A DNA stretch of 27,268 bases from Bdellovibrionota bacterium. Lineage in GTDB: Bacteria > Bdellovibrionota_C > UBA2361 > OMII01. The stretch covers positions 1 to 27,268 of the forward strand of contig JBIKWQ010000047.1 of NCBI GenBank assembly GCA_044356215.1. The letters are read 5' to 3'. Position numbers: made by a program. Below are positions 12,001 to 18,000 of this stretch, piece after piece; position 1 is the first letter of the stretch, and every line of letters begins with the position of its first letter.

Positions 12001-15000
12001 GCGTGTCAGTAATCTGTAGATCATCAAACGAGAAATAGTCTGAGATGTCATAGATCAAGGTGTGGGTAAGGGTATCACCTGGCTTGGCCGTTGAGCCGCC
12101 CGTTGTCGCGTTAGTGATCGACTTGGATGTGTAGAGCGACCTGTGTTCTAAAGTGGCGGAAGCTGGGCCCGATGTTAGGTTTAGGTTGCCTGATCCTGGA
12201 TCGTAGTTATAAGTGGTGCTCGCTGAATTCGTTGACGTCGTTGTCGCTCCAGTAGTAGGTGGGATAATAGGCGCTCCAGATCCACCGGCGAACTCCTGCA
12301 CGTACCCTGTGTAAGTAACCTGCTTATCGAGACCTGGATCTCCGGTAATGCTCGCGTAGGTTACCGTAAGAGTGCCCCCGCCCGCGCTTGTTCCTGTGAA
12401 AGAGCAGGTATCGCCAGCGCCCAAGCTTGGGCTAAATGTAAGGCTTCCTGGATTAGTTTTGCAGTTGCTGCCAGGGAGTGATGTAAAAACGAATGTATTG
12501 GGCAATACATCTGTGATCACGTTTGTAGTCGTGGTGAAGGTGTTCGCCACAGTGACATCTAGGGTAAAGCGTCTTGGATAGCTCGGACCAGTCGCTGTTG
12601 AGCCATCGAAAAGCGCGGCTACGCTCTTTTGAAGTAAGAGAATAGTTGGTGTTACGTTAACAGTTGTGGCGCTGGTACAAAGGGTATCGCCTGTTCCGCA
12701 AGGCCCACGTGTTCCGTTTGGTACTGCTCCCAGAGCAAAAACAGCAGTAGCGTTTACAGGCTCTGGAACACCGAGGGTCGCTGTCGCTAGGACCTTAGCC
12801 GGTATCGAGTAGGTGATCGCTGGCTCGTTCTGAGCGACGCTTCCAACAGGAAGAGAGAAAAAGATAACTGATTGGCCCGCCGTTACAGGGACCTGATTGC
12901 CGGTTACTGGGTTGGTGTAGTTAGTGCTGCCGCCCGCTGGTCCGAAAGCTGTTAAGCTTACCGGAGCACCGCCGAGAGAGGTAATAACTATGCCGTTTCG
13001 GCAGGTGGCGTCACATTCGATCCCTGCTGGGAGCTTTACTTCTAGCATCGGGTAGTAACCAAGGGCGTCACCTGTATTAGTGAACGATACCTCGACGTTG
13101 ATATTAGAGTTTAACAGGGCGTTGGCAGGTGCCTGAATAGTCGCTGTAGGTATCGGAGCGGCGAAAGCTGAATCAGAAGACGCGGCGAATATTAGCGGGA
13201 GAAGGGTAAGGAGAGTTGATTTAACTAGGCGCTTGGTAAAACTAAACAACATACACATCTCCAATAGACGTTCTCAAGCCAACACTTCCTAGAGATTCTC
13301 CAGAGTGTGACCGCCGTCATTGTGTAGCCTAGAAAGGGGGTTGGGATCAACTTTAGCGGCGAACTCTTTCTTTACTCTAGTTGTTCAGTGATTAGCTGAC
13401 CTAAATAAAGCTGTTATTACAAGTGTTTGCTAGTTAAACGGGAGCCCCGAGGGCGTTGCTTGCTTCGGATAGTAGCGGGTAGGTGCGACTACCGTTTCAA
13501 GGAGCAAGAACCTAGTTTGGGTGGCGGTACATCATACCCTTTGCAAGTTAGGGTTGGGAGTTAATTAGGGAGAAAAGATGCGGAATATACTAAAGGGCAT
13601 GATTCGAGTCGTAGCCACGGTGGCGTTTGTGATGACGGCAGTGGCTGGGAGGGCTTGGGGGGAGGAGATGTTCCTTTTGGACCGAGCGGCGCGCAGTAAG
13701 AAGAAACCGGAAAATGTTACTCTTACATTTAAACAGTCAGATGGCAGGGATGCTGCTTCTCGGGCTGTGATCAAGTTACCCACAAGCGATAAAGTGATGG
13801 AAGCACTCTATTCCGGGGATAATTTGCTGGTTGCCACGGAGACTAAAAGCCGCGGAAAGCATGAGCCTAGAGTATATCAGTTTTTGGTGAATGAAGACGG
13901 ATCTACTAAGCGTGTTGCTAGGCGTCGGCCGAGTGAGGAAGATCTGGCACTGTTTGGGAGAGTCGCTGAATCGCGAAGGCCTAGCCGCCCAGCCACCTGC
14001 AATGGCCCAGGGTGCAGCCCGAATACAGTTCCCAGTGTCCCTGTTGTGGGTCAACCATATTACCCCCCAGTTGTTAACCCTCCCTCAACCGGTGGCAACA
14101 ACATTATGTGCATGACAGCGGGAGATGTTCGTTGTGGTCCGGCGGGGAAACCAGGCGAGCAGTGGTGCTGTCCGAAGGATCCAGGGTGCGGGAGTGCTAA
14201 GGACGTTTGCGGAAGCGGGGGAGGGCAGCCCAAGCCACCGGTTTCGCCGCCGCAGCCTCCAACGGGTGGAGATTGTCCAGGGGCCTATGCAAACGAGAAT
14301 ACAAAGAAGTGCTCGTTTAACTCGACGTTTACGTGCTGCAAACCATCAGAATCATGTAGCACCATAAAAGTTGATGATGGAACAACAATCCCTTTCTGTA
14401 GCACTAGTAGTAATCCGCCGATGGGAGGAGGTCCAGGTGTGGGTGCGCCTCCACTTGCAAATCCTAGCCCAGGATTATGTTATTATGATCCCACAACTGG
14501 ACAGAAAATTTGCCCAAGGAGAGGTTTCTAAAAAACAAATCGGCCCCCCAAGCTGTCACGCTTGGGGGGCCGATAAAAGCGCCTCTATGCAGATGCGCTG
14601 CGCTTGTTACTTATGACTCTGTATCGAAGTATAAGCCATCAAGCCTAAGCTCTGAGCGCGTTTAATCGCTTTTGATACTTTGCGCTGATTGTAGGCTGTT
14701 AAGCCGGTTAAACGACGTGACAGGATACGACCGCGCTCGCTAACAAACTTTGAGAGCATCGCTACATCTTTGTAGTCGATCGACTTGGTTGGATCCTCAG
14801 TAAAGGGGTCAAGCTTCTTACGACGCTTGAAGAGCTGAGTTCTCTGAATCGATGGGAGTGGCTCGAACTTTCTGCCGCCCTCTTGTCCCTCTGATGAACC
14901 AGTTGATGGTCCAGAATTCTTGCCGCGATCCTCGCACACCTTCATCGGGCGGCCATTTAGTGGGCGGTTGTTTAAGCCCTCGATCGCCTTCTTAGCGTCG

Positions 15001-18000
15001 TCCTCGCTCTCCATCTCAACGAAAGCGAAACCCTTTGAGCGCTTCGTCTCACGGTCAGAGGCTACTACTACACTTAATGTTGGCCCAACCTCGTCGAAGA
15101 GGGCGCGGAGCTGATCGCTCGTTACTTCAAAATCGAGATTGCTAATAAAAAGCTTCTTCTTTGATACTGCGCCAGAATTCATGAACACTCCATTTGCGTG
15201 AATATTTTCAAGGCCCGGGATGCTACCTATCACTGGGGAAAATGTCAAACTGGGGAGATTTCCTACCCCCTAACTTAAAGTTACTTAAAAGAACTATTGA
15301 CGCCAGAAACCAACCGATGTATCTTCTGAATCCAGATTTGTGAGCGAGCACAGCCAGTTGCGGCCGTTTGGGATGGGTTGGGGAATCTCTCCTTCTAGGC
15401 GCTGGTGGCAAGTTTGCCGCGGTCTTTAAATATCGTGGAGAGATAGTTAACTCCTCGAAAAGACAGAGTGGAAGACAAGGTTACGCAGCTTGCAAACTCA
15501 ACCAAACACGCGATTCAGACAACAAGTCAGTCTCTTGAGCGCCCGTTCAAGAGAGAATAACCGATTCAATATAACTGTAGAGTAACAGGAGTAATAACGG
15601 AGCTATGAGCAATTCTGCCAATAATTTCTTGCCCGAAGATGAAGTAGAAGCATCCTCCCCAGTTAAGCCTGAAAGAAATCTCCTAGCGGCGGTATTAGCG
15701 CGAGCTATCTGCGACGCTTTCGGAACAGCTCACTGTGAGCGTCACGTGGTGCGCAGCGCGCGTCAGTGGCTCTTCGGTAAGCTTACTCCAAAGCGCCCAT
15801 TTAGCTTTGCTTGGGTGGCGCTGCATCTGGACCTCGATCCGATCTCGCTTCAAGAGAGCCTCCGTAATTACGAGGGTGATCCAGAGGCGTTCCAAGAGCG
15901 TCTCAGCTTGTTACGCTAAATGACACTGTCTCCGTGGCGTAAATGCGTGGTGGCGGCAGCCGCCATCACGCTTGTTGTTGCTTATCAGCTTTATCAAGTC
16001 GCCAGCCTTACCGGAAACTACGAAGGCATGTGGTTTTCACTCGCTCATACCGTGATGGTAGCGGTTGGGGTTGTGTTGGCGTTGAGACGGGTTGGGGGTC
16101 AGGCAGGGGCCTCCTAGGCGATAGATTCAAGACCTTTACTCTGCACTAGAGCTAGTAGTTTTAATGATGGACCCGAAGGCTTTTTCTCTCCTCGTTCCCA
16201 TTGACTGATCGATGTAATTGTAACGTTCAGGTAATGCGCAAATACGGATTGACTTACGTTTTCACGCTCCCGAATAGCGCGAATCTCATCGCCTGTAAGA
16301 TCTTTCACGGGAGTTAAACAGGAGTTGTTGAATTCCTGCATTGTGTGTTTGCTGATGACACCGGTCTCTCGTAAGCTCGCTGCAGCTTCGTGAATAGCAG
16401 CGAAGGCGTCACTCCTATAGTGCTTAGCTTCGCTTCCCTTTCTTTTCTTCATAAGTCTTTATCCTCTCTAAATCACCTCTGGCTTCCTGTCTCTCAAGCT
16501 GGGCTTGAGTCATGCTCAGCATAATTCCGGCAAGCTTTTTAAACTCGCGCAATTCAGCGCCGGTTATGTTGTCTCTGTCCTTCTTTGAGAACCCGTAAAT
16601 AAAAAAAACTAGCTCCCCCTTCTTATAAAACAGAATTGTTCTGTATCCCCCAGATTTACCCGCCCCGGTTCGAGCCACCCGTTGCTTGATTACTCCGCCC
16701 CCAAGGTTGGCATCAACTGATCCGCGCTCCATTGACTCGACAATTCTAACCAGATCGCGATCTTCAATACCCGATCGTGCGGCATATCGAGTAAACCACT
16801 TGCTTTTAAAGATCTGCACCTCAGTGGTTCCCTATAAGACTAATCTTATTTATTATGGTATAGCACTCGGTGTTATATGTAAAGTGATTTTTTAGAAGCG
16901 TTAACTCGAGACAAAATAGCCGACTTCCTACGGGGCGTTGCAGTTTTTTTGGTACGTTGCTGAGATCACTAGTAAAAGAAGCGCAAAACAGCCATAGAGT
17001 CACGGTCACGATCCAAAAAACATCCGGTGAGTAGTTACCGAATATCTCAAAGTTTTCTCCTGCCTTCCCTAAGTCGAGATCACGGAGGGCTGCAGAGAGA
17101 TGCCTGCGCGAAAAAATATGCGATGAAGAAATCTCCGTGGCCCGCCGTGACCTCGATGTAGATTATCCAGCACGGAGGGTGAGGAAAAGAATTAGGAAGA
17201 GTAAGAACAGACGAACATGAACCAACAGCAGCGCCGAGAAAATCACCTCGGCACTAATCCACAAAAATCATCCCCGCCCCCAACTAGGCTCTCTCTTCTC
17301 AATTAAAGCCCGAATCCCTTCGGCAAACTCAGTAGAATTATAATTTATACTCTGTGCTTCAGCCTCGTGATTAAGAGCTGCCTGCAATTCAGATAAATCA
17401 CCACGCATAGTTTGAAGTAGCTGTATTCTCGCTGCAGGTCCACACGCTAAGATCTCATTCGCCACTTTTTGCGCCTCATTTAGCACCTCATCACGGGTCG
17501 TAACTCGTGACACTAATCCAAGCCGTAGCCCCTCCGCCGCGTTAATAATCCTTCCGGTTAATAGAAGTTCAGTAGCAGCGGATCTCCCGATAATTCGCGG
17601 AACCAGAAATGTTCCGCCCATTCCAGGATGTAGCCCCAGCTTTAAAAATGTAAATCCAAGCTTCGTATCATCACTAGCGATCCGGATATCAGCGGCACAT
17701 GCCAGACAGAGGCCAGCGCCAACGGCGGCTCCATGCAGAGCGGCGATAATCGGCACATTTAGAGTAAGGATAGAGAGGAATGAGTCATAAAACTTTAGCA
17801 TCCCAACGCGGTTTTCCTCTTTAGAGCGTGAGCGTTTGGCGTCAAGCATCTCTAAGTGACCACCCGCTGAGAAAGATCGGCCAGCTCCACGAAGGATAAT
17901 CACCTTCGCGGCCCCTTCCACCTTTAGACGTGACATCACAGAGGCGAACTCATCCGCCATCGCCTCACTCATGGCATTTAGATTCACTTCGTCGTTTAAA

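Follow-up and report, generated by a model that had tools for sequence, protein, structure and literature searches.

A ribosomal protein bS18 with a tethered RNA recognition motif in a phylum-rank lineage of bacteria

On the platform of the bacterial 30S subunit, mRNA is captured by ribosomal protein bS1. The available text of PMC13000457 describes this protein as helping to recruit leaders, and bS18 also lies close to the mRNA path. The accessible part of one preprint (bioRxiv 10.64898/2026.07.03.736309) puts the bS18 N-terminus in a cavity of the platform, next to both the mRNA exit and the anti-Shine-Dalgarno (anti-SD) sequence, and in Bacteroidia bS18 forms part of an anti-SD pocket, according to the portions at hand of PMC7797042 and PMC9976891. 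For the N-terminal extension of chloroplast bS18c, the authors of the same preprint, in its accessible part, propose extra mRNA contacts. RNA recognition motifs (RRMs) are found on chloroplast ribosomes in cS22 (PSRP2), whose place, in the available sections of PMC5737520 and of that preprint, is the small-subunit foot, where it lies on 16S helices h6 and h10. They also occur in free-standing bacterial proteins such as Rbp3, which co-purifies with ribosomes through an association that its authors, in the available text of PMC12232666, think is mediated by mRNA and not by direct binding. Our literature search found no paper on a fusion of an RRM to bS18. To our knowledge, whole globular RNA-binding domains have rarely been acquired by bacterial ribosomal proteins.

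The window, meaning the whole stretch of DNA that we analysed, comprises 27,268 nucleotides of a Bdellovibrionota genome (assembly GCA_044356215.1, contig JBIKWQ010000047.1). On its minus strand, an open reading frame at 14607..15182 (191 codons plus a stop codon at 14607-14609) encodes a 191-aa protein in which an RRM is tethered in front of a complete bS18. The RRM domain (14931..15155, minus strand; residues 10-84) carries RNP2 as LFISNL at residues 11-16 and RNP1 as KGFAFVEM at residues 50-57, and it matches Pfam RRM_1 (PF00076) over residues 11-80 with E 2.7e-23 and 82 bits against a cut-off of 20.7. A linker rich in Gly, Ser, Arg and Gln follows (14832..14930, minus strand; residues 85-117), and then the basic N-terminal tail and core of bS18 (14628..14831, minus strand; residues 118-185). 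The bS18 part exceeds the curated cut-offs of both Pfam Ribosomal_S18 (PF01084; residues 133-182, E 4.8e-24, 84.7 bits against 21, model positions 3-52 of 52) and NCBIfam TIGR00165 (residues 118-185, model positions 1-68 of 70, 79.7 bits against 38.75), and phmmer matched residues 113-186 to solved bS18 chains with E values down to 1.5e-17. An AF2 model (pTM 0.42) contains two well-folded domains, the RRM with a pLDDT of about 90 and bS18 with 82-94, joined by a linker predicted to be disordered (37-61). The modelled RRM has the order beta-alpha-beta-beta-alpha-beta (strands 10-14, 35-42, 49-57 and 81-84; helices 22-30 and 60-70), and its best Foldseek match is the RRM of hnRNP A18/CIRBP (5tbx_A, rmsd 0.8 A), so that model match and fold both identify it as an RRM. 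Among solved structures no entry combines the two domains in one chain, and the listed solved bS18 chains are at most 98 aa long. A preliminary description of this DNA had read the gene as an RRM, a Gly/Ser/Arg-rich linker and bS18 in fusion, and that reading stands, with one 191-aa frame and both Pfam domains above cut-off.

The source genome is 96.5% complete in 131 contigs and yields a single S18 match above cut-off, the only other match having E 0.135. The usual rpsF-(priB/ssb)-rpsR-rplI context, which is typical of bS18 genes and not defining, is absent: rpsR stands alone on its contig, and on contig C78 bL9 comes immediately after bS6, L25 and Pth lie upstream, and there is no S18. The genome also encodes full-length bS1 (613.5 bits against a cut-off of 577), bS21 and, as the second of its two RRMs, a free-standing RRM protein on contig C44. 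Databases name the fused protein plain 'S18', which makes the feature invisible to annotation-based surveys. The preliminary description had given the gene as the genome's only bS18, outside the S6-L9 cluster, accompanied by bS1, bS21 and a free-standing RRM protein and plainly named, and it is borne out on each of these points.

The fusion is ancestral to the phylum-rank group to which the genome belongs. S18 was found in 116 of the group's 124 species genomes and is fused in 113 of these 116, in line with the lineage-wide conservation claimed at the outset; 107 genomes gave one full-length alignment to RRM-bS18, and six more, all fetched and checked, have longer linkers. In G077 the RRM and S18 lie in two frames (a frameshift), in G006 the S18 gene is interrupted by a contig end, and in G009 the RRM has been lost, so that this domain can be dispensed with, provided the G009 assembly is correct. 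S18 was not found in eight genomes of 55-90% completeness (seven checked with PF01084, and G051 with a protein query only), and none of the 124 holds a second, unfused S18. In a protein search 497 clusters out of 575 candidates passed E<=0.001, and both PF00076 and PF01084 occur in every one of the 120 listed. The fusion spans the whole phylum-rank group, under mixed public labels that include SAR324 cluster, Deltaproteobacteria, Oligoflexia and Bdellovibrionales, and not a set of 'marine delta-like lineages' as had been suggested; 'marine' is also unfit for the source genome, since all 24 RNA runs containing the stretch carry the label lake water or riverine metagenome.

Two adjacent genes misjoined by assembly or gene calling could mimic such a fusion, and the split frames of G077, like the separate adjacent genes that encode the two parts in Pirellulales, would fit this explanation. 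It is refuted for practical purposes by the uninterrupted single frame in 113 independent species genomes, by the cluster counts above and by RNA-library contigs that span the junction. The RRM and bS18 are in one piece in these contigs, which cover 14535-15183, 14621-15169 and 14618-15120 at 99% identity or more and come from three runs, each with its own study code, although they can prove neither transcription nor strand.

Across 24 phylum-wide sequences, with identity down to 37%, RNP2 is kept as LF[VI][SG]N[LF] and RNP1 as [KR]GF[GA]F[VI]E[MF]; F12, N15, G51, F54 and E56 never vary, and at least 90% of the sequences have F52. The aromatic positions of the RNP consensus are retained in both motifs, and from the conserved RNP residues the RRM looks able to bind single-stranded RNA. 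The linker ranges from 23 to 66 residues in 33 sequences (G 18%, R 11%, S 11%, Q 9%). Purifying selection on the RRM is strong within the genus: its dN/dS is 0.06, compared with 0.10 in the linker and 0.02 in the S18 core. These values are rough because dS approaches saturation (about 1.4), and pairs that were saturated have been left out.

A Shine-Dalgarno-like GGAG (15188..15191, minus strand), read from the sequence, lies 5 nt before the ATG and is kept in 10 of 10 genus sequences. A promoter-like site, TTGACA-17-TAGCAT (15220..15248, minus strand), was picked up by a consensus scan only (10 of 12 matches), with TTGACA invariant in 10 of 10 genus sequences, and would imply a leader of about 30 nt. 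An intrinsic-terminator-like hairpin of 15 pairs with a T run (14530..14574, minus strand) is located 33 nt past the stop codon. Between the RRM-bS18 gene and its divergent neighbour, the genus alignment, promoter scan and RNA-library contig starts (at 15347 and 15351) mark a conserved intergenic block (15262..15372) that contains a plus-strand promoter-like site (15297-15325) and the putative start of a long leader. The neighbour itself (15605..15919, plus strand) encodes a 104-aa protein for which Pfam and NCBIfam searches returned no family, and a protein search gave 458 clusters, all 'hypothetical'. The protein is very conserved, and in 31 of 34 phylum loci a homologue adjoins the fusion gene; this association is new here and offers a further lead.

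A second link between an RRM and bS18 emerged outside the phylum. Among 80 free-RRM loci from many phyla, rpsR lies directly downstream in four (three labelled Pirellulales and one 'uncultured bacterium'), where it is the sole S18 of the genome. In Pirellulales a separate RRM/Gly-rich gene stands directly upstream of rpsR on the same strand in 15 of 30 S18 loci examined, a sample of non-independent kin that leans towards the query's close relatives because the loci were picked as best matches to one query. In a tree, the 24 fused RRMs group in one clade (SH-aLRT 87) and the 18 from Pirellulales in another (97), and the two clades are not sisters. The Pirellulales pair is a second, independent genomic link of an RRM gene to rpsR, new here, and provides a second independent test case, possibly in cultivable planctomycetes. 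The fusion itself likely arose by read-through from an rbp-type gene, with an RRM and a glycine-rich tail, into a downstream rpsR, and the linker would then be the former tail.

The RRM may instead work mainly in RNA chaperoning of a general kind, in adaptation to stress or cold, or in autoregulation, and have no specific role in initiation; it would then either be released by processing or be coupled to ribosomes by the fusion only in dosage and location. In the available text of PMC13370968 and PMC12232666, free-standing bacterial RRM proteins are post-transcriptional or cold-adaptation factors, and the best NCBIfam RRM match of the fused domain is the 'RNA-binding regulator' domain NF058537, although at 85.1 bits it stays under the cut-off of 100 and does not assign the RRM to that family. 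The genome also retains a free RRM protein, and one lineage has lost the RRM and kept S18. We nevertheless consider this explanation rather unlikely, given the retention of the fusion in 113 of 116 genomes with S18 and the strong purifying selection on the RRM. With a short predicted leader and no Rfam match in either the window or the S6 locus, there is scant space for an autoregulatory element in the leader, and the independent adjacency in Pirellulales points to a bS18-specific link.

Because RRM-bS18 is the organism's only bS18, it should be the one that pairs with bS6, which the genome also encodes, on the 30S platform, and it would accordingly be built into ribosomes. With the bS18 N-terminus beside the mRNA exit and the anti-SD, each ribosome of the phylum should have a tethered RRM that reaches mRNA 5' of the start site; the position beside the mRNA exit, as first proposed, is reasonable. 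Our best explanation, to which we assign a probability of roughly 0.5, is a sole bS18 whose tethered RRM serves as an additional standby contact for mRNA in initiation. The flexible linker, extending from the bS18 N-terminal tail, would keep the RRM within reach of the leader, where it could hold mRNA in cis. The ligand would be mRNA, and the RRM might capture or select 5' leaders. Such a contact would supplement bS1, bS21 and SD/anti-SD pairing without replacing any of them; the presence of full-length bS1 indicates that bS1 in particular is not replaced.

The 16S rRNA 3' tail of the phylum ends in CCUCCUUU, with the anti-SD intact in 30 of 30 3' ends, and the 16S rRNA is of full length in all five genomes checked (1515-1522 nt against Rfam model positions 1-1533). 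SD-like motifs occur in 29% of -20..-4 windows against 16% of control windows, with a GGAG peak at -13..-9, in a crude count that takes the first ATG of 1333 long ORFs as the start; with these start calls, the two thirds of genes given in the preliminary description could not be reproduced. The coexistence of an intact anti-SD, bS1, bS21 and a normal-length 16S rRNA with RRM-bS18 is a point new here, and nothing is evidently lacking that the RRM would make up for. With these components in place and SD-like motifs enriched upstream of genes, there is no lost function that would demand a further mRNA binder, which weighs against our best explanation. The S18 of G009, which has no RRM, counts against it too, as does the view of the Rbp3 authors that mRNA mediates the association of Rbp3 with ribosomes.

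The ligand could instead be rRNA, the RRM serving as a clamp on platform helices, for structure or assembly, or holding the single-stranded, pyrimidine-rich 16S 3' tail and so tuning SD dependence. That tail is a plausible RRM ligand in terms of presumed preference, SD-like motif use looks modest by the crude count above, and Bacteroidia bS18, bS21 and bS6 already build an anti-SD pocket in the accessible sections of the papers cited. cS22, the only ribosomal RRM protein with a solved structure, contacts h6 and h10, and thus binds rRNA at the foot and not mRNA, as far as the available sources go, which also tells against a standby contact. We find an rRNA ligand doubtful: full-length 16S rRNA leaves no large deletion for the RRM to compensate, the GGAG peak at normal SD distance and the GGAG before the RRM-bS18 gene suggest that the anti-SD is in use, and a long, variable, disordered linker suits a mobile module better than a fixed clamp.

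If the RRM touches mRNA as a standby contact, these organisms would recruit mRNA through three contacts, the other two being SD pairing and bS1, and this would be relevant to how bacteria other than the models choose their start sites; the RRM-less species offers a natural control. In an entire phylum-rank lineage an RRM would have become a permanent component of the 30S platform, presumably next to the anti-SD and the mRNA exit. It is also conceivable, if improbable, that the RRM is a lineage-specific initiation device, either a leader-RNA reader or a gate for the 16S 3' tail, which would alter the selection or holding of mRNAs on every ribosome of the phylum, with a two-gene version reached independently in Pirellulales and the 104-aa neighbour as a dedicated partner or regulator. 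If true, start-site recruitment in bacteria would have a new mode, shared by a whole phylum and based on an RNA-binding domain of eukaryotic type.

Among known systems, canonical bS18 (rpsR; PF01084, TIGR00165) is matched by residues 118-185, a complete S18 and the sole copy, but RRM-bS18 has about 117 extra N-terminal residues, and its gene is a single one with its own promoter-like site and terminator-like hairpin in place of a position between rpsF and rplI. Chloroplast bS18c likewise extends bS18 at the N-terminus, by heptad repeats in land plants; in the available description that extension is a repetitive peptide of basic and aromatic character, short at about 19-55 residues, whereas a globular RRM is tethered here, and the lineages are unrelated. 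cS22 resembles RRM-bS18 in bringing an RRM into a bacterial-type small subunit as an integral part, and it is close to the fused domain in sequence (5x8p_v, E 4.3e-20) and in structure (5mmj_v by Foldseek, rmsd 1.0 A). However, in the accessible sources cS22 is a separate protein with two RRMs, confined to land plants, neither fused to bS18 nor at the mRNA exit, whereas RRM-bS18 is bacterial with one RRM fused to bS18. The parallel with cS22 that had been drawn for leader capture therefore fails, as cS22 sits at the subunit foot on rRNA and the available parts of PMC5737520 and bioRxiv 10.64898/2026.07.03.736309 show no leader capture. Free-standing bacterial RRM proteins (cyanobacterial Rbp1-3, Bacteroides RRM-1, NF058537) have a single RRM and often a glycine-rich tail resembling the linker here, but no covalent join to a ribosomal protein. 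bS1 is closest in proposed role, as a flexible binder of single-stranded RNA near the mRNA exit that helps recruit leaders, yet it does so with OB-fold S1 domains in a separate, reversibly bound protein, in contrast to the fused RRM of RRM-bS18.

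Our analysis establishes the architecture, ancestry and constraint of a phylum-wide bS18 variant that carries a tethered RRM. The open reading frame at 14607..15182 on the minus strand translates into 191 amino acids, and Pfam places RRM_1 at residues 11-80 (E 2.7e-23) and Ribosomal_S18 at residues 133-182 (E 4.8e-24), both far over cut-off, which upholds the two-domain protein proposed in the preliminary description. Since residues 118-185 correspond to positions 1-68 of the 70 in the NCBIfam S18 model TIGR00165, the linker is followed by a complete bS18, basic N-terminal tail included. 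By every test run, the protein belongs both to bS18 and to the RRM family. The bacterial Rbp regulator domain was also considered as an identity for the RRM and was set aside, its score lying below the cut-off of that NCBIfam model.

An SD-like GGAG, read from the sequence, lies 5 nt before the ATG. Scanning of the minus strand gave a promoter-like TTGACA-17-TAGCAT by consensus (15248..15220) and, past the stop codon, a strong terminator hairpin (14574..14539). From the positions of the promoter-like site and the hairpin, the gene appears to be monocistronic and its leader to measure only ~30 nt. No Rfam family reached its gathering threshold in the window or at the S6 locus, and the known S6:S18 leader motif was not seen there. 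The hairpin is shared with a 317-aa Cys/Pro/Gly-rich ORF at 13578-14531 on the plus strand. Beside that ORF lies one of 1649 aa (8315-13264, minus strand) that resembles a surface protein: its N-terminus is signal-like, and it contains many repeated segments rich in Thr/Ser/Gly.

The host assembly is 96.5% complete, and in all of it a single S18 scores over cut-off, in agreement with the earlier claim of an only bS18. The claimed exit from the S6-S18-L9 operon holds as well, with bL9 directly after bS6 and no S18 between them. One further, free-standing RRM gene is present in the assembly, as are a full-length bS1 and bS21, all three as previously listed. Because the fusion protein is the sole S18, its incorporation into ribosomes is predicted and, by logic, close to certain.

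The survey of distribution covered 124 species genomes of the host's phylum-rank group. In 107 of these, a single alignment to the query begins no later than residue 10, ends no earlier than residue 178 and lies within an open frame of at least 170 aa. One stop inside the alignment was flagged in 10 of the 107; the gene of G044, the sole one of the 10 fetched, encodes 181 aa without interruption, so the flagged stop must be its own terminal one, with the alignment overrunning the gene end. Six further genomes (G018, G025, G026, G032, G033 and G121) give a two-piece alignment owing only to a longer linker, with both domains in one frame. Altogether, the fusion is found in 113 of 116 S18-bearing genomes, and an additional plain S18 in none of the 124. 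In G077 the RRM and S18 parts are adjacent in different frames, and in G006 the S18 is interrupted by a contig end. The genome G009 encodes a 107-aa S18 (G009:C117) that retains linker-like residues and has no RRM, and the 178-nt gap to its upstream gene is too short for one; in the same family, G010 and G011 carry the fusion. No deletion boundary could be defined against the fused G011, the DNA alignment being too diverged. If the assembly is right, G009 is a natural RRM-loss control. S18 was not found in eight genomes (55-90% complete), in seven of them by PF01084 and in G051 by protein search alone. G058, assembled in one contig (2.3 Mb, 82% complete), has no S18 by PF01084 and a sole match to the query at E 1e-14; in G056, an RRM-plus-linker-like match continues across three stops. 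The fusion is older than the phylum's crown.

The public labels given to member proteins disagree with one another (SAR324 cluster, Deltaproteobacteria, Oligoflexia, Bdellovibrionales, Ca. Dadabacteria), Bdellovibrionota being the commonest label for the group in Atlas. A profile search with an alignment of the fusion protein against 1.84 billion representatives returned mostly multi-RRM proteins of eukaryote type, with 2 of the 150 matches listed of fusion length and full, and is uninformative on fusions outside the phylum.

Both halves of the protein are under constraint. Across an alignment of 24 sequences, with identity down to 37%, the RNP2 (LF[VI][SG]N[LF]) and RNP1 ([KR]GF[GA]F[VI]E[MF]) motifs are kept, and F12, N15, G51, F54 and E56 of the RRM are invariant. 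Within the genus, dN/dS is lowest in the S18 core (0.02), followed by the RRM (~0.06) and the linker (0.10); with dS near saturation, these values are rough. The linker varies from 23 to 66 residues, is rich in G/R/S/Q and appears disordered in the AlphaFold2 model (pLDDT 37-61, with ~90 for the RRM and 82-94 for the S18 core); with a pTM of 0.42, the model gives RRM and S18 no fixed placement relative to each other. By Foldseek, the modelled RRM lies 0.8 Å from that of CIRBP/hnRNP A18, and no solved chain with both RRM and S18 was found.

A contig scan for free RRM loci, based on the RNP1 pattern only, yielded at least 80 from many phyla, none from the host's phylum. Four of these have rpsR as the next gene downstream, on the same strand; three carry Pirellulales record titles and one is labelled 'uncultured bacterium', the upstream RRM protein has a glycine/arginine-rich (RGG/glycine-rich) tail, and the paired rpsR is the sole S18 of the genome. 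When 81 genomes of the order were sampled, an RRM gene stood upstream on the same strand in 15 of the 30 best S18 loci, a set that leans towards kin of the query, and one more had too little upstream DNA to judge. At the Pirellulales loci (L054, L072, L103, L112 and L121-L150) the order is RRM gene, rpsR, thioesterase-like gene and ABC ATPase gene, and rpsR is likewise outside the S6-L9 context. In a weakly resolved tree of 141 RRM domains (79 columns), all 24 RRMs from fusions group in a single clade (SH-aLRT 87), and a separate clade (SH-aLRT 97), not its sister, unites the 18 Pirellulales RRMs. This argues that two lineages united RRM and bS18 separately, one by fusion and one as neighbouring genes. 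With support of 76 for the sister group of the fused clade, the donor of its RRM cannot be named. A natural source of the linker would be the glycine-rich tail that free Rbp-type proteins carry.

The stretch occurs in 24 runs, all of them lake or river metatranscriptomes, four of which (X1, X2, X3 and X6) were examined for cover. At 99% identity or higher, contigs of X1 (14535-15183), X3 (14621-15169) and X2 (14618-15120) each span RRM, linker and S18 without a break, and the cover by X6 is split into two pieces; such contigs attest presence, not strand or level, and DNA carry-over is possible. Cover is absent at 14347-14534 and 15193-15333, which fits a monocistronic unit, but the gaps carry no evidential weight.

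On the plus strand, an ORF of 104 aa at 15605..15919 (104-111 aa in the phylum), belongs to no known family. In the phylum, 31 of 34 loci (L007-L040) have a homologue adjoining the fusion gene; the two genes diverge in the order to which the window belongs, and in the other families the homologue lies just upstream in the same direction. Its protein matches no Pfam or NCBIfam family, and a search returned 458 clusters, all labelled 'hypothetical'. Mean column identity is 65%, versus 50% for the fusion protein; the core reads KPERNLLAAVLARAICDAFG...RSARQWLFG...FSFAWV, with two Cys and one His nearly invariant. The AlphaFold2 model is all-helical (pLDDT 67.5) and has no Foldseek match in the PDB at E<=0.001; matches to sigma region 4 or an HTH, with E above 2, were unusable. 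A complex prediction with RRM-bS18 scored 0.00 against a mark of 0.32, which is evidence neither way. Between two divergent promoter-like sites, in the region 15262-15604, a block (15262-15372) is conserved in the genus; it takes in the repeat-like TAACTTAAAGTAACTTAAAA as well as roughly the first 30 nt past the predicted plus-strand start, and no Rfam family was found in it. RNA-library contigs start at 15347 and 15351, which suggests a leader of ~250-270 nt for the small ORF. Further on, at 16114-16819 on the minus strand, overlapping ORFs of 131 and 112 aa are, by eye, what we take to be a toxin-antitoxin-like pair, RelE/HigB-like and then XRE-type HTH.

As 16S was not found in the host's own genome, relatives served to read the anti-SD. 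All 30 of 30 16S 3' ends from the phylum contain its core, CCTCC, and a crude count shows enrichment of SD-like motifs (29% versus 16%) at the normal distance, so the RRM would supplement, and not replace, the known recruitment parts. The N-terminus of E. coli bS18 is reported to become ordered upon mRNA contact at initiation and the N-terminal extension of chloroplast bS18c to point into the platform cavity (both in a 2026 preprint, bioRxiv 10.64898/2026.07.03.736309), and in Flavobacterium bS18 lies with bS21 and bS6 in the anti-SD-holding pocket (PMC7797042, PMC9976891). A 33-residue tether is estimated to span ~40 Å as a coil and >100 Å extended, which would bring the mRNA exit, the anti-SD and neighbouring proteins within reach. 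Our best reading, to which we give slightly less than even odds (0.45-0.5), is that the tethered RRM would hold mRNA near the exit. The RRM might instead bind rRNA or the anti-SD, the 16S 3' tail CCUCCUUU being a candidate ligand in what would be an anti-SD gate; we regard this as unlikely. The 16S is full length (1515-1522 nt) in five of five genomes checked, so there is no rRNA deletion for the RRM to patch. A general chaperone or regulatory role for the RRM seems equally doubtful.

In the literature searched, with subscription journals outside its scope, we found no paper describing an RRM-S18 fusion, and the terms 'S18', 'RRM', 'fusion' and 'fused' are absent from the main text of Yutin et al. 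2012 (PMC3353972). The preliminary description had likened the protein to cS22 of chloroplast ribosomes; this parallel does not carry over, as RRM-bS18 is unlike cS22 in architecture and predicted position. The closest functional parallels to RRM-bS18 are the N-terminal extension of chloroplast bS18c and bS1.
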